Virus record (IMG/VR): IMGVR_UViG_3300042987_000361
Location: 1 to 29,930 of that record
Reading direction: 5' to 3' (one strand)
Origin: a virus
Taxonomy: Duplodnaviria; Caudoviricetes
Length of the DNA: 29,930 nucleotides
Shown one piece after another: positions 8,619 to 28,764 of this stretch. The position numbers and the translations under genes are program-made. The notes under the pieces were generated by a model. That model was not told where the DNA came from, searched no databases, and saw nothing but the letters and a program-made list of their open reading frames with translations. Each line of letters starts with the position of its first letter. Positions within the stretch are counted from its first letter, which is position 1.

Positions 8619-9959
8619 ATGGCTCCTAAAAACAAAGCCATGCCCAAAAGTAAACCAAAGGTAGATCCTGTTAATAAATTGTTACAGGAACGAGAGTTGG
8701 AATACCAGGGGGCTATGGGTATTGCTAACAATGATTTGCGGGCAAAAGAAACTGAATTGCTGCAAATTCAACAGGCATACAAGAATAGTGGGATAAAAGT
8801 AGAAGGGTTCGACGAGTTTTTGGCCAACAAACATGCTCAAATTAAACGAGCATATAGAGACGTTGTTAGCGAACAATCTTACCTCTTTGAAAACGATTTG
8901 AGGAATTACGCTATTGGCTCTGGTGAGTTATTGGATGTAACTAAAACTGAGGCCAACCAACGTAAAATTTCACAACCAATTCCTGGGACACAAGCACACC
9001 ATCCAGCTTCTGTGTCTTCCGTAGAAAGTTATTTACGGAATATGCCGATGGCTGAGCAACGTCGTACACTTGATCTTTTAGTTAGTCAAGGTTATGTTGT
9101 TGGTTCAAAGGCAGAAGGCTTTATTCCATTATCTGGCCCAGCACATTTAGGCGGAGGCGAGCGTTGGGGTAAAGCATTTGCTCACGTTGGTAAGGAAGGT
9201 GTTGAGTCTGATCCCGGTAGATTCAAAGGAACTGCTCTTCCTAAAAACACAACAGCTGAGCAAGCTGTAGCGGCAATGAAGCCAATGTTGGACGAACAAA
9301 TTGCCCTTAATACAGCTGCTTACAATCATCCAATTGAGCAGCAAATGCGACAAGTTGCTGAGCAATTGATTGGAAAACCTATCACTTGGATGGGTGGTGG
9401 TGAAGAAGATCTAAAAGCGCAAAGAGTTGCCGCTAAAACTCAAGGAATTAATGCTACTACTATTTCCAAGGGATTTAGCAAATATCCTCAATTAATGGGT
9501 ACTGAACAGGTTCCTGGTGTCAGTATCATGACAGATGTCGGGACAAGGATTCCTCTTGGCACTAAACCGAGTGATGAGGTACGCGCCCAGGCAAGAGAAA
9601 CAGTTCGCAATCCAAACATTGTGCTTGCTAGAAGCCAAACCCTTGGCCAAAAAGCAGCGGCTATTGCTAACAGAGAGCCAGTAGCTTCTGTAACTACTGC
9701 AGTTGTTGTACCGACAAAACCAGCAGCTAAACCAGCAGCTAAACCAGCAGCTAAACCAGCAGCTAAACCAGCAGCTAAACCAGTAGCTAAACCTAAACCA
9801 AAAGTTCGCACTACTCCTGCTGTTGTAACGCAGAAATCGCGTACTAAACCAACTAGCGCTAGTATGCAAATTAGGGCAATGCAGCGATCAGCGCCTGATG
9901 TTATTAACATTCAACCTGGAATGAGTTTGCCCTCTAGTTCACTTATTCAAGGTATCTAA
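8619..9959 (+). CDS. Hypothetical protein with AHH/HNH-like His motif and KPAA repeat tail
   Basis: 446-aa ORF; QAHH...GYVVG...FIPLSGPAH...AH; (KPAA)5-KPVA near C-terminus. Confidence 0.75.
   Translation: MAPKNKAMPKSKPKVDPVNKLLQERELEYQGAMGIANNDLRAKETELLQIQQAYKNSGIKVEGFDEFLANKHAQIKRAYRDVVSEQSYLFENDLRNYAIGSGELLDVTKTEANQRKISQPIPGTQAHHPASVSSVESYLRNMPMAEQRRTLDLLVSQGYVVGSKAEGFIPLSGPAHLGGGERWGKAFAHVGKEGVESDPGRFKGTALPKNTTAEQAVAAMKPMLDEQIALNTAAYNHPIEQQMRQVAEQLIGKPITWMGGGEEDLKAQRVAAKTQGINATTISKGFSKYPQLMGTEQVPGVSIMTDVGTRIPLGTKPSDEVRAQARETVRNPNIVLARSQTLGQKAAAIANREPVASVTTAVVVPTKPAAKPAAKPAAKPAAKPAAKPVAKPKPKVRTTPAVVTQKSRTKPTSASMQIRAMQRSAPDVINIQPGMSLPSSSLIQGI
9717..9788 (+). repeat. 12-bp tandem repeat AAACCAGCAGCT x5 plus one variant (KPAA)
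   Basis: Five perfect units 9717-9776, then AAACCAGTAGCT. Confidence 0.97.
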
Positions 9960-10908: not shown

Positions 10909-12544
10909 TTATCTACAACACGGACCTAAACGACTACAGATCCAAGCCTTCCGAGGAGTCGGTAAAAGTTGGATTACTGGAGCGTTTGTGTTGTGGACAC
11001 TTTTTAATGATCCAGAAAAAAAGATCATGATTATCTCAGCTTCTAAGGAACGAGCAGATAACATGTCTATCTTTCTACAAAAGTTAATCATTGAAACGCC
11101 GTGGTTAGTACATCTCAGACCTAAAAGTGATGAGGCTAGATGGTCGCGTATTAGCTTTGATGTAAACTGTAGCCCACACCAAGCACCATCAGTTAAATCA
11201 GTTGGTATTACAGGCCAGCTAACTGGTTCTCGTGCAGACTTAATGATTCTTGATGACGTTGAAGTTCCTGGTAACTCAATGACAGAAATGATGCGTGAGA
11301 AGCTTCTACAGTTGTGCACAGAAGCTGAGTCTATCCTTACACCAAAGAAAGACTCTCGTATCATGTACCTTGGTACACCACAGACTACCTTTACTATTTA
11401 CCGTAAGTTAGCTGAACGTAACTACCGTCCATTTGTTTGGCCAGCTCGTTACCCACGCAAAGATAAACTTAATCAATATGAGGGTGTCTTATCTCCACAA
11501 ATTGTGGAAGATATTGAGATGGGTGTTGAAGAATGGACCCCAACAGATCCTGATCGCTTTACCAGTGATGATCTACTGGAACGTGAAGCAGCTATGGGTC
11601 GTAGCAACTTTATGTTGCAGTTCCAATTAGATACTACACTTAGTGATGCAGAGAAATTCCCACTTAAATTCTCCGATCTTATCATTACCTCTGTTAACCC
11701 GACTCAAGCGCCGGATGCTGTTGTGTGGTGCAGTGACCCTCGTAATTGTCTCAAAGATTTGCCTACGGTTGGCTTACCAGGTGATTATTTCTACTCCCCG
11801 ATGCAACTACAAGGTGACTGGGGATCGTACACAGAGACCATCTGCTCAGTAGACCCAAGTGGTAGAGGTACAGACGAAACAGCAGCTACATACATCTCTC
11901 AAAAGAATGGCTTTCTCTACGTTCACGAAGTACGAGCGTACCGCGACGGTTATAGCGACAATACACTTCTTGACATCCTTCGTGGGTGTAAGCGCTATAA
12001 CGTTACCAAGCTTGTTGTCGAAACAAACTTCGGGGATGGTATCGTCGCAGAACTCTTCAAAAAACATTTGCAACAAACTAAACAATTAATAGACGTAGAA
12101 GAAGTACGGGCTAACGTCCGTAAAGAAGATAGAATTATTGATACCTTAGAACCTGTAATGAATCAACACCGACTCATCATTGATAGGTCAGTGGTTGAAT
12201 GGGACTATGCTTCTAATAAAGACGCTCCACCTGAGGATCGACTTCTGTATATGCTCTTCTATCAGATGAGTAGGATGTGTCGTGAAAAAGGTGCAGTTAA
12301 ACATGACGACAGATTGGATAGCCTAGCTCAAGGTGTTAAGTACTTTACAGATGCTATGTCTATTTCTGCTTATGAAGCAGTTAAGCTTCGTAAACAAGAA
12401 GACTGGAAGGACCAACTGGAGACATTCCTAGATGACCCACAAGCTGCTACAAACCACTTAGTGCTTGGGTTTAACATAGACCAAAGGAGACAAGCTAGAG
12501 GTAAATCTAAAGGCAAAGCTGTGCCTACATGGGTAAATATGTGA
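10739..12544 (+). CDS. terL: Terminase large subunit (T7 gp19-like); start uncertain
   Basis: Walker A IQAFRGVGKSWIT, LTGSRADLMILDDVE, nuclease SVDPSGRGTDET, HDDRLD. Confidence 0.97.
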   Translation: MALPSGNGKRTTRKAQQPGETTTTLDLIKSDFKIFLQALWHQLDLPSPTRAQYAIADYLQHGPKRLQIQAFRGVGKSWITGAFVLWTLFNDPEKKIMIISASKERADNMSIFLQKLIIETPWLVHLRPKSDEARWSRISFDVNCSPHQAPSVKSVGITGQLTGSRADLMILDDVEVPGNSMTEMMREKLLQLCTEAESILTPKKDSRIMYLGTPQTTFTIYRKLAERNYRPFVWPARYPRKDKLNQYEGVLSPQIVEDIEMGVEEWTPTDPDRFTSDDLLEREAAMGRSNFMLQFQLDTTLSDAEKFPLKFSDLIITSVNPTQAPDAVVWCSDPRNCLKDLPTVGLPGDYFYSPMQLQGDWGSYTETICSVDPSGRGTDETAATYISQKNGFLYVHEVRAYRDGYSDNTLLDILRGCKRYNVTKLVVETNFGDGIVAELFKKHLQQTKQLIDVEEVRANVRKEDRIIDTLEPVMNQHRLIIDRSVVEWDYASNKDAPPEDRLLYMLFYQMSRMCREKGAVKHDDRLDSLAQGVKYFTDAMSISAYEAVKLRKQEDWKDQLETFLDDPQAATNHLVLGFNIDQRRQARGKSKGKAVPTWVNM

Positions 12545-12834
12545 CAATTTAATATTGTCATATTTTACGAAATATTACATTCCTTGTAATCCCTTCTGCT
12601 GCAATTGATCTGACCAACCACCCATGTTAAGGGGGAGTGGAAGGGTGGATCCACTTCCTCTAACGGGGAGAGACTCTAAGACAAACAAGTTGTCTTAATC
12701 ATCTCTCCCTTTATTAATGTCCCTGGGGAAGGACATTCTGTAAGAACTACTAAACCCAAAAGACACAAACTCCACTAACTTGTTCTATTACTAAGTTAAT
12801 ACTGTGATTACTGTGAGAGGAGCGAAGCTCTCAC
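12539..12834 (+). other. Non-coding array of about six hairpins downstream of terL
   Basis: Inverted repeats at 12542-12560, 12574-12590, 12626-12664, 12666-12709, 12716-12737, 12813-12834. Confidence 0.7.
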
Positions 12835-12880
12835 TACTGTATCTACTGTTATTAACTCTCCTACTAACCTCCGTTAACGT

Positions 12881-13063
12881 ATGAGTAGAACTTATCGTAA
12901 ACAACCTACATATGTATTTAGAGCTGTACAAACTTATAGTGAGTTAAAACAGCAGTCATTTGATGATGATGGCTATACGGTATCTACTCGGCATCGTTAT
13001 ATCCCGTCATTGTATGACGACATTAAAGTATCCGCCTACCAACAGTTAGACCATCATTCATGA
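12881..13063 (+). CDS. Small hypothetical protein (MSRTYRK start)
   Basis: ATGA overlap with thyX. Confidence 0.65.
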   Translation: MSRTYRKQPTYVFRAVQTYSELKQQSFDDDGYTVSTRHRYIPSLYDDIKVSAYQQLDHHS

Positions 13064-13695
13064 CTACCCACCAAGTCAAACTCGTACACATTACTCCTAA
13101 CGCTGAACAACTCATTGCCTATATGGCTAGAGTCAGTAACCCCGCTAATCAAAACAACACTGAGACCAGTGCAAAGTTAATTAAATATCTCATTGACCAT
13201 AAACATTGGTCTCCATTTGAGATGGTTAATATGTGCGTAGAAATAGAAACAACTAGGAGTATAGCAGCACAGATCCTCAGGCATAGGAGCTTCAGCTTTC
13301 AAGAGTTTAGCCAACGGTATGCTGAGGTACAACTTAGACCTGAGTTACCTGAAATGAGAAGGCAGGATCTGAAGAATAGACAGAATAGTGTTGATGACCT
13401 TAGCCTTGAGACACTGAAAGAATGTGATGAGGTGTTGGGTAAGGCATTGGTAACAAGCTACCGAGCATATGAGCGTTTACTTGAGCTTGGTGTCGCTAAA
13501 GAGTGTGCTAGGGAAGTGTTGCCACTGTGTACTCCGACTCGACTGTATATGAACGGTACAATTAGGTCTTGGATTCATTATTGTCAACTTAGGTGTGCTA
13601 ACGGGACACAGCTTGAACATCAGATCATCGCTAGAGAGGCCTGGAAGCTTCTGCAAGAGCACTTACCGAGTGTGTGCATGTCTCTGGAGGTTTAA
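13060..13695 (+). CDS. thyX: Flavin-dependent thymidylate synthase
   Basis: ThyX motif RHRSFSFQEFSQRY; HWSPFE; ECAREVLP; TQLEH. Confidence 0.97.
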   Translation: MTTHQVKLVHITPNAEQLIAYMARVSNPANQNNTETSAKLIKYLIDHKHWSPFEMVNMCVEIETTRSIAAQILRHRSFSFQEFSQRYAEVQLRPELPEMRRQDLKNRQNSVDDLSLETLKECDEVLGKALVTSYRAYERLLELGVAKECAREVLPLCTPTRLYMNGTIRSWIHYCQLRCANGTQLEHQIIAREAWKLLQEHLPSVCMSLEV

Positions 13696-13699
13696 CTGG

Positions 13700-13744
13700 T
13701 TAGAGGGGCTTTACAGGTCATCCTGTGTTGTCCCTTTAATTTTT
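13700..13744 (+). terminator. Terminator-like hairpin after thyX
   Basis: TTAGAGGGGC..ACAGG-tcat-CCTGT..GTCCCTTTAA followed by TTTTT. Confidence 0.55.
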
Positions 13745-14330
13745 GACAGAAATTTCAGAAGCCTTATATCGACATGGGCGGTGGCATTTACCCCCATGGC
13801 CCCTTATAAGAATAGGCAACGCAGTGGTATCCAGGATGCACCCTGATTGATGTATTATAATTACATAGGGACCAGGATATTTACTGTTGATAGATAGTAA
13901 TAGCAGGATTGAACTGTTATTAACTGTGTGCGTGCATTGTGTTATCTATTGCCACGCCTTATTGAGAATGAATCGCAATAAGCAATGTGATAGTTATAGG
14001 TAATGATAAGTTATTGTAATCAGTTAGTACTGTGTGATAAGGTGCTGCTATAGGTAGATACGAAGTGATCTGTCCGCCCTCCCTGTTCCGTCAGTACAGC
14101 GCAGCTATAACGCTCTCAGACACGTCTAGAAGGCGCTATAAGGCCGCTCTAATCATGATTAGGTATACTGTGACCTGATGCAGTATCGAGACGCCTTACA
14201 GGGGATGTACTAACTGTATTCACACTCATGCACTCGTTACACTCGAGCTCACGCAAACTAACACGCAGCTCAGCACGACATACGCCACGATACCAAATCC
14301 CTAATTGGTAGCTAGGAGCCCTAATCAGGG
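13745..14330. other. Non-coding genome-end junction (likely contains the terminal repeat and left end)
   Basis: Longest gene-free stretch, between last late gene and first early promoter. No host genes. Exact repeat limits cannot be read from one copy. Confidence 0.65.
14220..14229 (+). promoter_or_regulatory. TCACACTCAT motif copy 1 (candidate phage RNAP promoter core)
   Basis: Same 10-mer at 16506, 18491, 20719, 24081, 28233; variant TCACACTCAC at 15058; all + strand. Confidence 0.55.
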
Positions 14331-14331
14331 G

Positions 14332-14360
14332 TTGACAGGGCAGCCTGGATGGTCTATGGT
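14332..14360 (+). promoter_or_regulatory. Host sigma70-type early promoter
   Basis: TTGACA (14332-14337), 17-nt spacer, TATGGT (14355-14360), upstream of the first early gene. Confidence 0.8.
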
Positions 14361-14402
14361 AGGCTCATCGGTGGGGGACAGGAGACCCGGTTCTTTCCAC
14401 CA

Positions 14403-14414
14403 GCACCTAGACAA
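14403..14414 (+). promoter_or_regulatory. boxA-like antitermination element
   Basis: GCACCTAGACAA directly after a GC hairpin (GGTGGGGGAC...GTTCTTTCCACC), about 40 nt into the predicted transcript. Confidence 0.45.
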
Positions 14415-14592
14415 TTGCATATTTAGGTCGTCACAATACGGAACTAGCGGAGCGAGCGATCCCGCGAGACAGAGATATGGTTGCAACCCGACCAGCTGTC
14501 ACGACCACGTTGTTACTAATCATTAACACAGAGCCACATGTGTTTAATAAATTAGATCATGGCAACTACTAACTACTATTGGAGGACTGCTT

Positions 14593-14745
14593 ATGTCTCT
14601 TACTCTTGACCGTAAAGTAGCTACTGGTCTTCTCAGTAAGGCTACTACTGGTGATGATCTCTTGTCTGTACTTGAGATGATTACAGCTAGCTTCACCAAA
14701 CCTGTTGCCAACACTGTTCCTACACTTGAGGAGATTGAGTTCTGA
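14593..14745 (+). CDS. Early hypothetical protein, 50 aa (not in ORF track)
   Basis: GGAGGA RBS; MSLTLDRKVATGLLSK...EEIEF; TGATG coupling. Confidence 0.75.
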   Translation: MSLTLDRKVATGLLSKATTGDDLLSVLEMITASFTKPVANTVPTLEEIEF

Positions 14746-14927
14746 TGTCTGTGTTTACTTTTGATCAACTGCGTGATGCTGTGCAAGAATGCACCAGCTA
14801 TGACCTTGTTCAACGGTTTAGTGATGATGAGGATGAGTATGTGTTGATTGATCCGTATGGCGATCAAGATGGTGATGCTTTCAATGATCAAGTCGACCAG
14901 TATTTGTACGAGCTTGTCAATCAATGA
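14745..14927 (+). CDS. Early acidic hypothetical protein
   Basis: GAGGAG RBS; coupled at both ends. Confidence 0.75.
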   Translation: MSVFTFDQLRDAVQECTSYDLVQRFSDDEDEYVLIDPYGDQDGDAFNDQVDQYLYELVNQ

Positions 14928-15076
14928 CATACTACATTGCACGTATGAATGATGAGGGTAATTGGGAGTATTTAGATAATGCTCCTAGTTATTCTGATGC
15001 AGAGATGATGCTTGATGCGTACTGTGATATGTATCCAGCGTCTTACATTGACGTAATTCACACTCACGAGGGCTGA
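14924..15076 (+). CDS. Early hypothetical protein, 50 aa (not in ORF track)
   Basis: ATGA overlap; MTYYIARMNDEGNWEYLD...IHTHEG. Confidence 0.7.
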   Translation: MTYYIARMNDEGNWEYLDNAPSYSDAEMMLDAYCDMYPASYIDVIHTHEG

Positions 15077-15078
15077 TT

Positions 15079-15657
15079 ATGACTGACACTGCTGTTGTTC
15101 CATTTATGCTCAAGGGTGATGCACTTGTTGAGTACGTAAATGAGAAGATGGAGCTTATTAATAGAAATGAGCTGACACGCACTGAAATGATCAAGGACGC
15201 AGGCTATGTGTACGACAACGGTAATGCTATGTACACACAGTTCTACACTGAGCTACTCAATGCCAAGGGTGTTGTACCTGTGACTAACAACGACATTGCT
15301 GATCAAGAGTATGAAGATCTAAGTGTTGATAAGCGTAACCTCTATGATCGCATTGATGAATGGAGTGGTGCTAAGTGGACGCATGAGGAGCTGATTGAGT
15401 TCATTGATGAACTTGAGGACATTGGTATTGATACAGCGTCTGAGTTTGATGATGCCTATGAATGGGAGCATGATGGTTGGGCGTCTATGGCTGAGAAAGA
15501 GTTCGCTGAGTATTGGTGCATTGAGGTTCTTGATGCACAGATTCCAGAGTGTGTACTCGCTGCTGTAGATTGGCAAGATGTGTGGGATCACAACCTACGT
15601 TATGACTTCTGCTATATTGAGACTGCTAACGGTACATTCTTCTTTCGTAACAACTAA
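15079..15657 (+). CDS. Early protein: cyAbrB-like N-terminal domain plus ArdA-like acidic C-terminal domain
   Basis: MLKGDALVEYV...TEMIKDAGY...TQFYTELLNAKGV; EFDDAY...EKEFAE...IPECV...VDWQDVW...YDF...FFFRNN. Confidence 0.7.
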   Translation: MTDTAVVPFMLKGDALVEYVNEKMELINRNELTRTEMIKDAGYVYDNGNAMYTQFYTELLNAKGVVPVTNNDIADQEYEDLSVDKRNLYDRIDEWSGAKWTHEELIEFIDELEDIGIDTASEFDDAYEWEHDGWASMAEKEFAEYWCIEVLDAQIPECVLAAVDWQDVWDHNLRYDFCYIETANGTFFFRNN

Positions 15658-15815
15658 TGATGTTCAGAGTTATTCTTGATTCAGTAGACAATCCTGGTAA
15701 GTTTACATTTATAACGGTTGATGGTGCTAAGGACTTAGATGATTGCCTAAATCACATCCGCACTAAGTTCTCTAGTGAGTTTGTTATTGATCAAATTCAG
15801 GAAATTACGGAATGA
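15657..15815 (+). CDS. Early hypothetical protein, 52 aa (not in ORF track)
   Basis: TAATG coupling; MMFRVILDSVDNPGKF...QEITE. Confidence 0.65.
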   Translation: MMFRVILDSVDNPGKFTFITVDGAKDLDDCLNHIRTKFSSEFVIDQIQEITE

Positions 15816-15973
15816 CTATGACTGAGACCAACATTATCCTTGCTGTGATTGGCATGGTTGGGTTGTTCGCTACGGCTACAATCTATCAACGTGCTAATCG
15901 CATCACAAGTGTGTATTATGCTAACAAGGTTAATCGTGACCTTATCAACCTGAACAAGCGAGAGTTTAACTGA
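15812..15973 (+). CDS. Early small membrane protein, 53 aa (not in ORF track)
   Basis: ATGA overlap; hydrophobic IILAVIGMVGLFATATIY; TGATG coupling downstream. Confidence 0.7.
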   Translation: MTMTETNIILAVIGMVGLFATATIYQRANRITSVYYANKVNRDLINLNKREFN

Positions 15974-16161
15974 TGACAATTATCCACGACACGGCTATTA
16001 AGGTTGATGTTTACCCTGATGAGTTCAAGCCCCTCATGAAGGCAGTAAAGTATGCTTTAGTGTGTGATGATTCACGCAAGGTATTTAATGAGGAAGAGTG
16101 GTCTACGCTTAATGCGTGGCTTGATGACTTTTGTGACATTGCACTTAACGAGGCTGTATGA
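15973..16161 (+). CDS. Early hypothetical protein
   Basis: Coupled at both ends. Confidence 0.7.
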   Translation: MTIIHDTAIKVDVYPDEFKPLMKAVKYALVCDDSRKVFNEEEWSTLNAWLDDFCDIALNEAV

Positions 16162-16334
16162 AAGTCAACACCCGTGCATTGCTTGATCGCTTTATTCGTG
16201 AGGGGATTGAGCATACGTTCCTGAATACAGATGTTGAGTTAACGCCTATGGGTGAGCAGATCTTAGCCAATGACATAGAGCACCGCATCTGGCTTTACCT
16301 TGATGAATACTTCACCTTCGATGAGGACAACTAA
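16158..16334 (+). CDS. Early hypothetical protein, 58 aa (not in ORF track)
   Basis: GAGG RBS, ATGA overlap; MKVNTRALLDRFIREG...YFTFDEDN. Confidence 0.7.
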   Translation: MKVNTRALLDRFIREGIEHTFLNTDVELTPMGEQILANDIEHRIWLYLDEYFTFDEDN

Positions 16335-16504
16335 TGGCTAAAGCACTGACTGATGAGCAACGCAAGCTGCGTCTTGAGTTGGTTGACCTTGCTGCTCAAG
16401 GTGTACGCACTCAAGCAACAGCTGGTTACTATGATGCTGAACAAGTATCGTATTTAACTCAACAACTTGAGCGTATTGCTAAGTTCCTTTGTGTTAAATC
16501 CTGA
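16334..16504 (+). CDS. Early hypothetical protein, 56 aa (not in ORF track)
   Basis: GAGGA RBS, TAATG coupling; MAKALTDEQRKLRLELVD...FLCVKS. Confidence 0.7.
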   Translation: MAKALTDEQRKLRLELVDLAAQGVRTQATAGYYDAEQVSYLTQQLERIAKFLCVKS

Positions 16505-16519
16505 TTCACACTCATCGCC

Positions 16520-16684
16520 ATGTTGACAATGACAAAGCCACTCAAAGAGTACGAAGTCACTACTAGCACTGGTGTTTGGTACTTACTTGCTCGTGATAAC
16601 GAACAAGCTGCCTGGTCTGCTTTAGAGCTATCAGGGCAGCGTAATGAGAAACTACTTAATGTGAGGATTGCTGATGCCTGGTAA
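16520..16684 (+). CDS. Hypothetical protein, 54 aa (alternative start 16529; not in ORF track)
   Basis: MTKPLKEYEVTTSTGVWYLLARDNEQAAWSALELS...DAW; fills the gap after the TCACACTCAT motif. Confidence 0.65.
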   Translation: MLTMTKPLKEYEVTTSTGVWYLLARDNEQAAWSALELSGQRNEKLLNVRIADAW

Positions 16685-16979
16685 GGATTATCTGCCTAAC
16701 AACTGGCAAGAATATAAAGATGCACCTGATGATGCATTCATCCCTCATACCTTTGAGGAGATCATGTCGTGGAAGGTAGCAGGTTGGGAACTTCCTAGCT
16801 CTGTTGCTTGCATTATTCGTGTGTCTGATCGTAAGTCAGGCAAGGTTAAAGAGTTTGTCTACAGCAAGCCTAGCGCTGCTCGTAACAAGGTAGAAAAACT
16901 GTTAGCTACACCTGATGTAGAGTTTGCAGTATGTGACCACAAAGCTATTCACCACCTATCCCCTGAGTACAATGACTGA
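16674..16979 (+). CDS. Cyanopodovirus-type early hypothetical protein
   Basis: GAGGA RBS before ATG 16674; NNWQEYKDAPD...WKVAGWELPSSVACIIR recalled from pre-RNAP genes of related phages. Confidence 0.75.
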   Translation: MPGKDYLPNNWQEYKDAPDDAFIPHTFEEIMSWKVAGWELPSSVACIIRVSDRKSGKVKEFVYSKPSAARNKVEKLLATPDVEFAVCDHKAIHHLSPEYND

Positions 16980-17121
16980 TCTTGTTTTCTCTCGTCGTCT
17001 TCAACAACTAATCGATCAACTTAAGAATCACCCATTCAAAGAGGAGATCATCAAACTGGCACAAGAGCAGTTAATTGATGACTCCGATGTGGTAGAATAC
17101 TGCATGGTCACTAATGACTAA
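16972..17121 (+). CDS. Small hypothetical protein
   Basis: ATG 16972 overlaps the upstream stop region; helical 49 aa. Confidence 0.6.
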   Translation: MTDLVFSRRLQQLIDQLKNHPFKEEIIKLAQEQLIDDSDVVEYCMVTND

Positions 17122-17139
17122 TTACCTGGAGAGGTTTAT

Positions 17140-19479
17140 TTGGCTACACCAGCAGAGATTGATGCACAAGTTCAACTAGAAAGAGACCAAATCAATCAAG
17201 GACTCAAGCGACTGCATGAACAACGCAGACAACTAGAGGAAAAGAGTTATGCGTCTGCCACAATTTATGGCGTGGCTTCTATTGATGCTCTTCTTCCTAA
17301 GCTGGTTGAACGTATCCAGGAGACCAACCATAGGATCTACCAAAGACAAAACGGAGTAGCATTCAAGGAGATTGCTGTCTACCTATCGGACATTGAACCT
17401 ATGGCATCCGCTGCTATTGCACTTAAGATAACCTTTGATAAGGTATTCTCATTTAAGCAGGGCAGTGATCAACTTGTTTCAGTGTGTGATGCTATTGGTT
17501 CGGCTGTTGAGGCTGAATGCCAGATGCGTCACTATGAACGTAATGCTCCGGGTTTACTGGCAACACTCAAGAAGAACTACTACCATAGTTCAATGGGCAC
17601 ACATCAGAAGCTCGTTGTTATACGAACACTGATGAATCGTTGTGAGGTAGATCAGTGGCCTGCATGGGGTAGAACTAATCGTATCAAACTAGGTACGTGG
17701 TTGTTGGATTGTATTATCCAAACAAGCAACTGGTTTACCAAAGAACTCAAACAAGAGGGTAAGAACCGCGTTAATTACGTTGTCCCTACACCTGAGTTCA
17801 TTGAGATCAAGGATCGCATCATGAAGGATGCTGAACTCTTTGCTCCACTTGCATGGCCAATGCTAATCGAACCTAATGATTGGGCTGTTGGTAGGTCTGG
17901 TGGTTACATCTTGAACGAGGTGATGCACGGACATGAAATGGTTCGCCGGGGCAACCACCCATGTATACAGGGGGAGATACCCTATGCCTTTTTGAACAAG
18001 ATTCAGAAGGTTGCTTATCGACTAAACCCCTTTATTGTAGGGGTTGCTGAAGAACTAAGCAGACTGGAACGTTCAGTCGGTAAGTTTCTCCCTATCGTTC
18101 ATCACGAGCTGCCTGCTAAACCTGCTGATATTGAAACTAATTACGATAGTCGTAAGGATTATCGGAGAAGAGCAGCAGCTGTGATGAATACCAATGCTCA
18201 AGAGTTTAAGAAGTCATGTAGAACTCGCATGACAATGGAAGCAGTAAAACGCTTCAAGGATGTACCTAAGTTCTACATACCGTGGTCTTTTGACTATAGA
18301 GGTAGAGCTTACCCTATTCCTAGTTTCTTAACTCCCCAAGATACTGACTTCGGTAAGTCATTGCTTCGTCTTGCTGATGAGGCTTATATGACACCTGAAG
18401 CTGAGGATTGGATAGCATTTCAAGTTGCTACCTGCTATGGTCTAGATAAGGCTGCAATGGTAGAGCGTCTTGAGTGGGTACGAAATAACATCACACTCAT
18501 CACGCAAGTTGCCACAGATCCAATTGGATCGTTACCTGAATGGGAAGCAGCAGAAGAACCATGGCAGTTTCTAGCAGCATGTGAAGAATACTATCATTGC
18601 GTGATCGCAGCTGATAGACAGTTCACTGGACTGATGATAGCAACAGATGCTACCTGTTCAGGTCTACAAATTCTAGCAGGTCTTGCTAGAGATCGTAATA
18701 CCGCTCGCCTTGTTAATGTCTTACCTGGTGATAAACCACAAGATGCTTACAAAGTAGTTGCTGAGGAAGCTACACCTCATTGCCCTGCTTCTATTCAACC
18801 ATATATGGATAGGAAGACGGTCAAGAGGGTAGTGATGACAGTACCGTATAACGCTAAACCTTTCTCTAATCGTGGCTACATCCGAGAAGCTTTAACTGAA
18901 AAGGGCGTAGAGATCTCTAAAGAAGATCTAACCGCAACTGTCAAGGCAGTTAGAGATGCTATGAATCGTGTCGTCCCTGGTCCCATGGCCGTGATGACGT
19001 GGATTGAGAAGGAAGTAGCTAATGCTATTAAATCTGGCAAGACATTCCTTGAGTGGACAACACCATCTGGGTTTGTCGTACACCAAAAGCTGAACAAGAA
19101 ACAGTTTGAGGTCTTAGATCTACAACTGCTTGGTCGCTGTAAGATGAAGGTTGCAGTTGGTGACACAGATGAGGTTGACATCAACCATCACAAGAACGCT
19201 ACTGCTCCTAATCTTATCCATAGTTTAGATGCGTCCTTGCTCCATTTAGCTGTCTTACGATTTGACGCACCAATTGCTCTCATTCACGATTCTGTGCTTT
19301 GTCGTGCAACGGACATGTCCACCTTGTCCACTATTGTACGAGAAACATACATGCACTTATTCGCAGAGCATGATTATCTAAAAGACTTTGCCCTGCAGAT
19401 CGGGGCAGAGACTGAACCACCGATCATTGGTGATCTGGAACCAGAGACCGTGATTGAATCCACCTATTTCTTTTGTTAA
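17140..19479 (+). CDS. Single-subunit T7-like DNA-directed RNA polymerase
   Basis: FDYRGRAYP, motif A DATCSGLQ, motif B RKTVKRVVMTVPYN, APNLIHSLDA, motif C IHDS; TTG start with GGAGAGG RBS. Confidence 0.98.
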   Translation: MATPAEIDAQVQLERDQINQGLKRLHEQRRQLEEKSYASATIYGVASIDALLPKLVERIQETNHRIYQRQNGVAFKEIAVYLSDIEPMASAAIALKITFDKVFSFKQGSDQLVSVCDAIGSAVEAECQMRHYERNAPGLLATLKKNYYHSSMGTHQKLVVIRTLMNRCEVDQWPAWGRTNRIKLGTWLLDCIIQTSNWFTKELKQEGKNRVNYVVPTPEFIEIKDRIMKDAELFAPLAWPMLIEPNDWAVGRSGGYILNEVMHGHEMVRRGNHPCIQGEIPYAFLNKIQKVAYRLNPFIVGVAEELSRLERSVGKFLPIVHHELPAKPADIETNYDSRKDYRRRAAAVMNTNAQEFKKSCRTRMTMEAVKRFKDVPKFYIPWSFDYRGRAYPIPSFLTPQDTDFGKSLLRLADEAYMTPEAEDWIAFQVATCYGLDKAAMVERLEWVRNNITLITQVATDPIGSLPEWEAAEEPWQFLAACEEYYHCVIAADRQFTGLMIATDATCSGLQILAGLARDRNTARLVNVLPGDKPQDAYKVVAEEATPHCPASIQPYMDRKTVKRVVMTVPYNAKPFSNRGYIREALTEKGVEISKEDLTATVKAVRDAMNRVVPGPMAVMTWIEKEVANAIKSGKTFLEWTTPSGFVVHQKLNKKQFEVLDLQLLGRCKMKVAVGDTDEVDINHHKNATAPNLIHSLDASLLHLAVLRFDAPIALIHDSVLCRATDMSTLSTIVRETYMHLFAEHDYLKDFALQIGAETEPPIIGDLEPETVIESTYFFC

Positions 19480-22501: not shown

Positions 22502-23020
22502 ATGAACCTAATCTTCGACTTAGAAACTGACGGTCTCTACGATGATGCTACCAAGATCCACTGTATCGGCATCTATGATCTCGACACTAATCAGACGCTT
22601 GTCTTCAATGATGAAGGCAGTGAGCAACCAATTACAAAAGGTGTTCAGCTACTAGAAGATGCCTGTTGCCTTATTGGCCACAATATCATTGGCTACGATA
22701 TTCCTGTGCTCCGCAAGCTCTATCCTTGGTTTACCCCCGGTCCTAGGATTATTGATACTCTGGTTCTCAGTCGTATTTATCACGCTGATATGCTGAAGAC
22801 AGACCAGAAGCGTAAGTGGAAGAATATGCCACCACGGCTTCAAGGTCGCCACTCACTTGAATCCTATGGATACAGGCTCGGCGTTTACAAAGGAGAGTTT
22901 GGTAAGGATACTGACTGGAAGAACTGGTCACAAGAGATGCAGGATTACTGCATACAAGACGTAAAGGTAACACAGAAGTTATGGCAACATTTCCACCCAT
23001 ACCTGACTTCATCCAACTAG
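22502..23020 (+). CDS. DNA polymerase A, 3'-5' exonuclease part
   Basis: ExoI IFDLETDG, ExoII GHNIIGYD, ExoIII YCIQDV; GGAGG RBS. Confidence 0.93.
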   Translation: MNLIFDLETDGLYDDATKIHCIGIYDLDTNQTLVFNDEGSEQPITKGVQLLEDACCLIGHNIIGYDIPVLRKLYPWFTPGPRIIDTLVLSRIYHADMLKTDQKRKWKNMPPRLQGRHSLESYGYRLGVYKGEFGKDTDWKNWSQEMQDYCIQDVKVTQKLWQHFHPYLTSSN

Positions 23021-24261
23021 AACATGACGTTGCAACCATCCTCACAGAACAAGAGATACATGGGTGGTACTTTGATGAAAGAGCTGCATGGGAACTTGAA
23101 TCGACTCTCCGAAGAGAGCTTGAAACACTTACTCAGCTACTACGCAACAGGTACCCTCTCATTAAAGATCGAGAGTTTACTCCTAAAAGAGTTAACCGAA
23201 CAACGGGATACGTCGCAGGCGCTCCTCTCACTAAACTGAAGGAGTTCAACCCTGGTAGTCGTGATCACATTGCATGGGTCATGAAGAACCACCATGGTTG
23301 GGTGCCAGATAAAGAGACAGCTAGTGGCAAGACTGCCATTGACGAGACTGTACTCAAGGATATAGGAACCGAAGAAGCTCTTCAATTCTTGCGTTGCCTT
23401 GAGTTAACCAAAAGCCTCGGTATGTTGTCTGAAGGCAACAACGCCTGGTTGAAGTTAGTCAAAAACAATCGAATACACCATCACTGTTCAGTCAGTACGA
23501 ACACGCACCGATGTGCTCACCGTAATCCAAACCTTGCGCAGGTCCCGAGTGACTTATCATTCAGAAAACTCTTTACCGCGTCGCCTTCCATGGTTATGGT
23601 CGGTGCTGACTTAGCTGGTATTGAGTTGCGGATGTTGGCTCACTATTTAGCTAGGTACGATGGCGGCAGGTATGGAGACGTACTTCTTAATGGAGACATT
23701 CACCAAGAAAACGCCGACAAGATAGGTATATCACGCCGATTAGTTAAGACTGTAACTTATGCCTTCCTCTACGGAGCAGGCGACCAAAAGATAGGACTTA
23801 GTTATGACCAAAGCCTTTCCCCGAACAAGGCAAAAGAAAAAGGGGCTGAAATCCGAAGTGCTTATGTTGCTGCCATTGACGGCTTGGGTGATCTTCTTGC
23901 CGCTGTTCGTGCAGCGGGTGACAGAGGCTTTGTCAAGTCGATAGATGGACGTAAGATCGCAGTAGATAGCCCCCACAAGGCACTCAACTACCTTTTGCAG
24001 TCAGGGGCAGGTGTGGTTGCAAAGCGGTGGATGGTCATCGCTAATCAGAACTTCCCTACCATTGACAACGACTATCTCAGTCACACTCATCAACTTGCAT
24101 TCATCCACGACGAACTACAGTGGGAATGCCTGCCAGCTTATGCAGAAGATCTCAAGAACCATCTTGAGTTATGCGCTGCGCTAGCTGGCGAATACTACAA
24201 CCTCCGAATCCCCATTGCTGCTGAGGGGAAAATCGGCTCCACCTGGGCAGATGTACACTAA
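22981..24261 (+). CDS. DNA polymerase A, polymerase part (-1 frame relative to exonuclease part)
   Basis: PNLAQVP, motif A GADLAGIELR, motif B RRLVKTVTYAFLYG, motif C FIHDE. Confidence 0.95.
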   Translation: MATFPPIPDFIQLEHDVATILTEQEIHGWYFDERAAWELESTLRRELETLTQLLRNRYPLIKDREFTPKRVNRTTGYVAGAPLTKLKEFNPGSRDHIAWVMKNHHGWVPDKETASGKTAIDETVLKDIGTEEALQFLRCLELTKSLGMLSEGNNAWLKLVKNNRIHHHCSVSTNTHRCAHRNPNLAQVPSDLSFRKLFTASPSMVMVGADLAGIELRMLAHYLARYDGGRYGDVLLNGDIHQENADKIGISRRLVKTVTYAFLYGAGDQKIGLSYDQSLSPNKAKEKGAEIRSAYVAAIDGLGDLLAAVRAAGDRGFVKSIDGRKIAVDSPHKALNYLLQSGAGVVAKRWMVIANQNFPTIDNDYLSHTHQLAFIHDELQWECLPAYAEDLKNHLELCAALAGEYYNLRIPIAAEGKIGSTWADVH

Positions 24262-28153: not shown

Positions 28154-28319
28154 AACATCTGGCCTTCAACTGAGGGCCATCCTTAATGAACTTGAGGAGA
28201 ACTTTCCGCCAACTAATCCCCACCCGGATGACTCACACTCATTAATTATGTATCGCTCTGGCCAGCGATCCGTAGTAGAGTGGATTAACTATCGTTTATC
28301 CGACGACTATAATGGCTAA
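28122..28319 (+). CDS. Conserved hypothetical protein (T7 gp6.5-like position)
   Basis: LEENFPP...IMYRSGQRSVVEWI pattern typical of pre-portal genes of T7-like phages. Confidence 0.7.
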   Translation: MQTPISLNTLETSGLQLRAILNELEENFPPTNPHPDDSHSLIMYRSGQRSVVEWINYRLSDDYNG

Positions 28320-28764
28320 ATCTAAATCACCGTTTTCTATTGAAAACCTAACAAAGCGGCCTCTTGCTCCCTCTTTAATTTCCACCCCAAGAAAGAAAAA
28401 TACTTTTGGTGACTCGCTTCTGTCAGCACTGCAAGCACTGAAGGTACAACCACAAGCGGCTAGTCTCCCAACGTTTAAGCTTGACAAGCCAACCAAACCC
28501 CTCACCACTGCTACTGCTAAACCAGTAGCGCCAACGTATCTAGACACAGGTGACACATCTGCAATAGACTCTACAGGCTCATCCATCACTGACCCTACTG
28601 TTACTGCTCAGCTTCCTACTGTTGTTGAAGATGTAGGGGCCACTGCTACTGGGTTTAGGACTAAAAAATCAAGCCGTAAAATGGCTAAAAGTGGTGCTCA
28701 GGGATATGGGTCAATGAAAATCAGTACAAATACTCCATTCGCTAGTACTATTAATCTTGGATAA
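28312..28764 (+). CDS. Putative virion assembly protein (gp6.7/gp7.3-like position)
   Basis: Low-complexity Thr/Pro/Lys protein immediately before the portal. Confidence 0.6.
   Translation: MAKSKSPFSIENLTKRPLAPSLISTPRKKNTFGDSLLSALQALKVQPQAASLPTFKLDKPTKPLTTATAKPVAPTYLDTGDTSAIDSTGSSITDPTVTAQLPTVVEDVGATATGFRTKKSSRKMAKSGAQGYGSMKISTNTPFASTINLG

Follow-up and report, generated by a model that had tools for sequence, protein, structure and literature searches.

What can a small acidic protein, joining part of a cyanobacterial regulator of the AbrB type (cyAbrB) to an ArdA-like domain, do for the phage that encodes it? The question is raised by a gene of a 29.9-kb linear virus record, 65% complete, analysed over its whole length of 29,930 nucleotides (the window, to which coordinates refer where no other record is named). 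The window encodes a T7-like RNA polymerase, an ssDNA-binding protein, an endonuclease, a primase-helicase, a DNA polymerase, a terminase and ThyX: its source is a T7-like phage related to Synechococcus podoviruses. GAGG is found at 15068-15071, upstream of the ATG of the gene, the stop codon of which overlaps the ATG of the following ORF (Table 1). The protein itself gave nothing in Pfam or PHROGs and one weak row in NCBIfam; 514 homologues with E <= 0.001 were obtained among 532 candidates. The seven matches among 50,697 phage records all belong to Synechococcus phages (DSL-LC07, S-CBP1, S-B28, WH11-B and 7B11-B), and three cultured full-length homologues already bear the label 'antirestriction protein'. 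A different JGI label, 'NTF2 superfamily', attached to 8 of 120 homologues, is backed by neither the family scans nor the structure model.

Table 1. Position and character of the gene, its parts and the surrounding landmarks in the window.
Feature	Coordinates	Strand	Description
Whole gene	15079..15657	+	192 aa, 44 D/E vs 13 K/R
cyAbrB N-terminal module	15103..15276	+	Residues 9-66; predicted three helices and short hairpin after the GY motif, helix-turn-helix-like
Acidic linker and helix	15277..15324	+	Residues 67-82; least conserved, lowest model confidence within the chain
Acidic helical part	15325..15441	+	Residues 83-121; superposed in the model on ArdA domain 2, starting at about residue 87
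ArdA domain 3-like part	15442..15657	+	Residues 122-192; IP..DW, terminal FFF strand
Small same-strand ORF cluster around the gene	14593..17121	+	Context, likely early region, outside the protein
T7-like RNA polymerase	17140..19479	+	Landmark for the early location of the gene
Best sigma-70-like site upstream of the cluster	14332..14360	+	10/12 match

An earlier reading of the sequence alone (the sequence-only reading) had taken the gene for an early one, and its location in 50 related viral loci agrees with this. The RNA polymerase lies downstream of the gene in 32 of the 32 informative loci, order being scored where at least 3.5 kb of downstream DNA was present, and the terminase and ThyX lie upstream in all 27 loci with enough upstream DNA. 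The homologue of S-CBP1, gene 5, lies at nt 1127 of a record that begins 1.1 kb before it. Since the gene precedes the RNA polymerase, it is likely expressed early and, to judge from the same position, transcribed by the host polymerase. Sigma-70-like sites were no more frequent than expected by chance (6 found, 8.0 expected), as was the case for terminators, and no Rfam family was found in 12500-17200. The region 14305-14560, which contains the best sigma-70-like site, is conserved in 17 of the 50 loci; inspection by eye showed a short inverted pair close to 14426 and 14506, and the region may represent a conserved element of non-coding DNA or RNA. Between ThyX and the small-ORF cluster, 13700-14300 holds no genes and likely corresponds to joined genome ends.

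Both halves of the protein are under constraint. Of 49 loci, three were dropped as short or broken, and in the other 46 pN is lower than pS in each half, with a median pN/pS of 0.33 (module) and 0.34 (ArdA part): purifying selection acts on the two alike.

The identity of the first half rests on profile comparisons. The sequence-only reading had assigned residues of about 10-66 to the cyAbrB N-terminal domain, and a profile of 47 distinct cyAbrB N-termini taken from host genomes only matched residues 10-65 with 26.5 bits, against 9.5 bits for the best of 2000 shuffles, -1.8 for the reversed sequence and 5.9 for the next best among 311 six-frame window segments; the window sequence was itself part of the profile by which the host genomes had been picked, which biases this reverse test slightly by selection. 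The same profile attained at least 15 bits in 120 of 120 close homologues, and HH comparisons of the module with cyAbrB gave 94.9% (E 4.8e-8, close family) and, in a second comparison, 99.2%. At the level of sequence, the homology of the module to the cyAbrB N-terminus is real. The same reading was also right in holding that the C-terminal AbrB fold is absent: a profile of the host C-terminal (AbrB) DNA-binding domain scored 1.8 bits, under the 6.7 of its best shuffle, and attained 15 bits in none of the 120 homologues, and PF14250 was not found in the window.

The relation to cyAbrB surfaced only when the module was searched for separately. A first profile, built from 69 close homologues, gave 143 matches among 1.84 billion proteins, many of them sharing the pattern L.G..L...GY....G.....FY..L..A, and no cyAbrB was found among the 142 scanned. 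A profile of 28 modules, none carrying an AbrB domain, then matched 2320 proteins; PF14250 (E about 1e-14) was present in 10 of the 120 matches listed and was confirmed on rescan in five of five. In three picocyanobacterial genomes this module profile matched 3, 8 and 9 places, and in a sample of the phylum (81 unlabelled genomes) it matched 28, of which 25 had two each, and gave no match in 53, which may be non-photosynthetic lineages or misses. All 48 of the places extracted, out of 76, looked on inspection like full cyAbrB genes. The picocyanobacterial genomes G002 and G003 stand out by their 8 and 9 cyAbrB-type genes, compared with two in most of the matching genomes of the phylum sample.

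The AlphaFold models of the phage protein (pLDDT 90.6, pTM 0.61) and of a host cyAbrB (pLDDT 77.6) have the three helices and the hairpin in common, the module of the host model being a separate domain on a disordered linker (58-67). In both models, structural comparison places the module chiefly among helix-turn-helix DNA-binding domains, with weak scores (Z 2.5-4.2), and no solved structure is outstanding (best Z 4.2 and 3.6), a result that establishes neither a new fold nor a known one. As modelled, the module is helix-turn-helix-like, a feature missed by the sequence-only reading. An Atlas feature search with residues 5-72 returned nothing usable. In a tree of 92 modules over 54 columns, poorly resolved and with unsettled bootstrap, the fusion modules are mostly separate from those of cyAbrB, which leaves room for a changed function; the tree gives no donor, direction, number of fusions or order of events.

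The second half, residues 67-192, contains 34 D/E against 7 K/R. The sequence-only reading had recognised an ArdA-like acidic region and had let it begin at about 15442: the homology stands, but the boundary does not, since acidity begins at residue 67 (15277) and the structural match to ArdA near residue 87 (15337). The acidic residues are split evenly, 17 in residues 67-121 and 17 in 122-192, and in the latter part 14 columns are acidic in at least 90% of 121 homologues. HH comparison with five annotated full-length ArdA proteins gave 97.6% (E 3e-12, residues 115-192) for the wide family and 97.9% for the module-bearing family, but 12% only for the close family. Model residues 87-191 overlay residues 72-165 of ArdA 2w82 with Z 6.0 and rmsd 2.7 over 87 aligned positions; in this VIA comparison 2w82 tied first with a DnaD-like bundle; the scores are modest, Z values under 8 being common according to the tool. 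Foldseek placed 2w82 in its top row at E 0.043, with no row at 0.001. As modelled, residues of about 87-192 correspond to most of ArdA domain 2 plus domain 3.

Family and structure databases recover ArdA mainly through relatives. Pfam ArdA (PF07275) does not match the protein itself and matches one of 69 close members, at E 0.1; among the distant relatives, 31 of 142 match it at E <= 0.01, nine of them above the cut-off (one 986-aa repeat protein of the 143 was omitted from the scan). In PDB sequence searches, no ArdA was found for the protein or its profiles, and it was found at E 0.0016 with P0225, a relative in which the module is fused to full-length ArdA. F187 and F189, in the VF motif of the middle strand of domain 3, are invariant (69 of 69) and align with the terminal strand of ArdA. 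The IP..DW frame aligns as well, with Ala162-Val163 in place of Tyr137-Ile138 of Tn916 ArdA; this tyrosine is located in the ArdA dimer interface (PMC2731889, accessible portion, which also gives the domain limits), and the alanine at its position is nearly invariant in the phage family. ArdA domain 1 is absent: the HH alignment covers template columns 103-178 only, and residues 9-66 belong to another family. The lack of domain 1 and the alanine at the dimer position mean that the protein is not a canonical ArdA, just as the lack of an AbrB domain means that it is not a cyAbrB. A likeness of residues 70-124 (15286-15450) to sigma-70 region 1.1, with E about 0.5 for the protein and 0.003-0.007 in 3 of 142 relatives, was rejected as probably due to acidic-helix composition.

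ArdA tolerates the deletion of domain 1 and binds the methyltransferase core through domains 2-3 (same portion of PMC2731889); monomeric ArdA keeps antirestriction and loses antimodification (PMC3906837, in the part available), and a C-terminal small ArdA is active (PMC12548430, likewise in part). In a picocyanobacterial family of candidate hosts, which may not include the host of this phage, 34 of 61 genomes contain HsdS, and it was not found in the remaining 27. Taken on its own, the ArdA-like part probably blocks host type I restriction.

More can be learned about the module from its occurrence outside this fusion. The viral fold search turned up antirestriction proteins, a phage AbrB-family protein and a 52-aa protein of P-TIM68, a cultured Prochlorococcus myovirus. 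This last protein, gp074 (L230:4201-4359), is a stand-alone module with 60 bits against the host profile and a net charge of 0, and in the same small-gene cluster, 3.3 kb away, gp061 (L230:528-941) is ArdA-like and module-free. The existence of the two halves as separate genes of one phage indicates that the module has a function apart from the fusion. A cyAbrB query against phage records matched four records from three phages, in every case within the module only; phage B23 was also matched by this query. In phage B3, gp253 (L231:1414-1842) consists of the module and a basic 76-aa tail, with a net charge of +11, the tail matching none of the families tested. ArdA-like proteins without the module occur in S-PM2, S-TIM5 and P-TIM68.

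At least three kinds of ArdA occur as partners of the module: the family of about 190 aa described here; a further fusion family, about 157 aa long, found on other viral contigs, among them one of 178 kb; and full-length proteins, P0225 and P0260, which include domain 1. LRV/HEAT-repeat proteins, AAA+ proteins and DUF4357 proteins contain the module as well, and it can be repeated two or three times in tandem, which shows that it is not specific to anti-silencing. Proteins carrying it in other contexts are P0409, P0413, P0421, P0423-P0425, P0427, P0377, P0417 and P0240, and it was also seen before a weak Kyanoviridae Gp96 match. Full-length cyAbrB genes are present on 17 viral contigs (L213-L229), and these could possibly be the source of the module. 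The neighbours of cyAbrB in L215 and L218 are a replication initiator and exonuclease VIII, with RecT or RusA; in L227 and L226 it stands beside terminase genes, with two copies in L226. This suggests that some temperate phages carry a whole cyAbrB; lytic podo- and myoviruses of picocyanobacteria maintain the module under selection, either in fusions or by itself, and in every case the DNA-binding domain is missing.

The explanation that we prefer, tentatively, as possible rather than probable, combines two activities: anti-restriction by the ArdA-like part, through predicted DNA mimicry, and counter-silencing of host cyAbrB by the module, in the manner of H-NST. The acidic domains 2-3 would mimic DNA and so block host type I restriction enzymes, and the module would join the host cyAbrB silencers as a subunit devoid of a DNA-binding domain; cyAbrB poisoned in this way would be unable to coat the comparatively AT-rich incoming genome (GC of 0.45 in the window vs 0.66 in 80 picocyanobacterial loci). 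In the part available of PMC11368403, cyAbrB2 is described as a nucleoid protein which binds AT-rich DNA, represses, and is compared to H-NS; it interacts with cyAbrB1 and may defend against foreign DNA, its oligomerisation being said there to lack biochemical data and its N-terminal module being assigned no function in that part. H-NST is an N-terminal-only homologue of H-NS which antagonises it, most likely through heterodimers (PMC7074111, likewise in part), and the phage protein has the same make-up, with the N-terminal domain of a repressor kept and the DNA-binding domain missing. A predicted complex of host cyAbrB module 1-57 with phage module 6-70 scored 0.26 and 0.21, the mark being 0.32, with unfolded controls.

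Counter-silencing by the module, considered by itself and by analogy with H-NST, comes close to an even proposition. It is favoured by the stand-alone gene, the H-NS-like character of cyAbrB2, the AT-rich phage, the precedent of H-NST and the reported links between ArdA and H-NS discussed below. Interference with host cyAbrB had been put forward by the sequence-only reading, and it has gained indirect support from the stand-alone P-TIM68 gene with its separate ArdA-like gene and from the comparison of cyAbrB2 with H-NS. Extended to cyanophages at large, the proposal is that counter-silencing of cyAbrB may be widespread, the module acting as a poison subunit alone (gp074) or fused to ArdA and possibly plugging the AbrB surface; we entertain this with the same reserve as the combined explanation.

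The helix-turn-helix-like nature of the module makes a DNA-anchoring role a serious, if rather unlikely, rival: the module would hold the mimic on the entering phage DNA or autorepress an early promoter, leaving cyAbrB untouched. Helix-turn-helix autorepression occurs in anti-CRISPR fusions. Most fold neighbours of both module models are of the AraC, TetR, LuxR, Fis and sigma types, in B3 gp253 the module comes with a basic tail, and a fused DNA-binding domain, ArdC-N, has been proposed to recruit ArdA to injected DNA (PMC5512222, in the section available). The scores of those fold neighbours are nevertheless weak, and the phage module is less basic than that of the hosts, with a median net charge of -2 in the family vs +4 in the 47 host modules and a hairpin of 8 residues with one K/R vs 12 residues with three in the host (measured in 18 of the 47). 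Charge separates the two cases weakly, since cyAbrB modules of picocyanobacterial type are also near neutral (median 0 to 0.5).

A second alternative, distinctly unlikely, would turn the whole protein into a two-point inhibitor of cyAbrB, the module docking on the host module and the acidic part filling the AbrB surface, with restriction no longer the main target. According to PMC13300388 (in part), ArdA and a small C-terminal ArdA are able to open a promoter by binding its repressor, and titles in the reference list of that paper credit ArdA, Arn and Ocr with activation of H-NS-dependent transcription and the ArdA N-domain with inhibition of H-NS, the slot of this N-domain being the one that the module occupies. 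The loss of the dimer tyrosine and the joining of the module to several kinds of ArdA would fit as well. Against such retargeting, module-free ArdA-like proteins of similar C-terminal type are maintained in S-PM2, S-TIM5 and P-TIM68, P0225 has domain 1 in addition to the module, and type I systems are found in over half of the candidate-host genomes.

A role of the module as a mere scaffold, which would take over from the altered ArdA dimer interface in oligomerising or stabilising the mimic and would have no host target, is very doubtful. The nearly invariant alanine in place of Tyr137 would agree with it, and so would the separate position of the host-model module on its linker, as expected of an oligomerisation domain; however, the stand-alone gene of P-TIM68 leaves nothing to scaffold, related ArdA-like proteins persist without the module in several cyanophages, and ArdA monomers keep antirestriction, as noted above from PMC3906837. 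The pure multimerisation role that the sequence-only reading had offered as its other option fits this stand-alone gene poorly. Other targets such as BREX or RNA polymerase, on which Ocr acts (for one of them, according to a reference title in PMC10746416), are improbable and the least likely of the readings considered.

The protein can be set beside several known systems. With ArdA (PF07275; Tn916 Orf18, PDB 2w82) and the C-terminal small ArdA (sArdC) it shares the domain 2-3 sequence pattern and predicted fold, a strong acidity, a terminal aromatic strand and a location on a mobile element among early-entering genes; it differs from ArdA in falling below the Pfam cut-off, in having domain 1 replaced by an unrelated module and in the change of Tyr137 to Ala. 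With cyAbrB (PF14250; cyAbrB1/cyAbrB2) it shares an N-terminal module of 55 residues, for which the models show identical helices and hairpin, but it has no AbrB domain, its hairpin is shorter and less basic, and the module is fused to an acidic predicted mimic. H-NST is likewise a mobile-element protein reduced to the N-terminal part of a host nucleoid repressor; the likeness is an analogy of design with no homology, and the H-NS N-terminal domain is a proven oligomerisation domain. T7 Ocr (gp0.3), reported to be a DNA mimic directed against type I enzymes, is also acidic and encoded early at the left end of a T7-like phage, whereas no Ocr sequence match was found in the PDB searches and the modelled phage fold matches ArdA.

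The ArdA-like C-terminal part is shared with the cyanophage 'anti-restriction' proteins (PHROG 36653; S-PM2 p068, S-TIM5, P-TIM68 gp061; DSL-LC07, WH11-B and 7B11-B), of which the S-PM2, S-TIM5 and P-TIM68 versions are without the module, and the cyAbrB part is named in no record label of this set. As cyanophage ArdA-like genes are already labelled, the anti-restriction half is ordinary, and it is the module which makes the protein interesting. In searches of the literature on cyAbrB, AbrB or ArdA in cyanophages, on phage-encoded AbrB N-terminal domains and on the early genes of S-CBP1, supplements aside, no paper on the fusion or the module was found. If the module targets cyAbrB, it would be a cyanobacterial counterpart of the phage anti-H-NS proteins, and a global regulator of carbon and nitrogen would be tied to phage defence; were counter-silencing true, cyAbrB would be an anti-phage silencer and its conserved N-terminal module would gain a function. 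The 52-residue natural fragment encoded by a cultured phage makes two questions directly testable: the role of the cyAbrB module and a possible silencing of foreign DNA by cyAbrB.

Elsewhere in the window, two ORFs, 8619-9959 (446 aa) and 28312-28764 (150 aa), have no PHROG family or significant Pfam match. The DNA polymerase is split over overlapping ORFs, 22502-23020 encoding the 3'-5' exonuclease and 22981-24261 the polymerase A domain.
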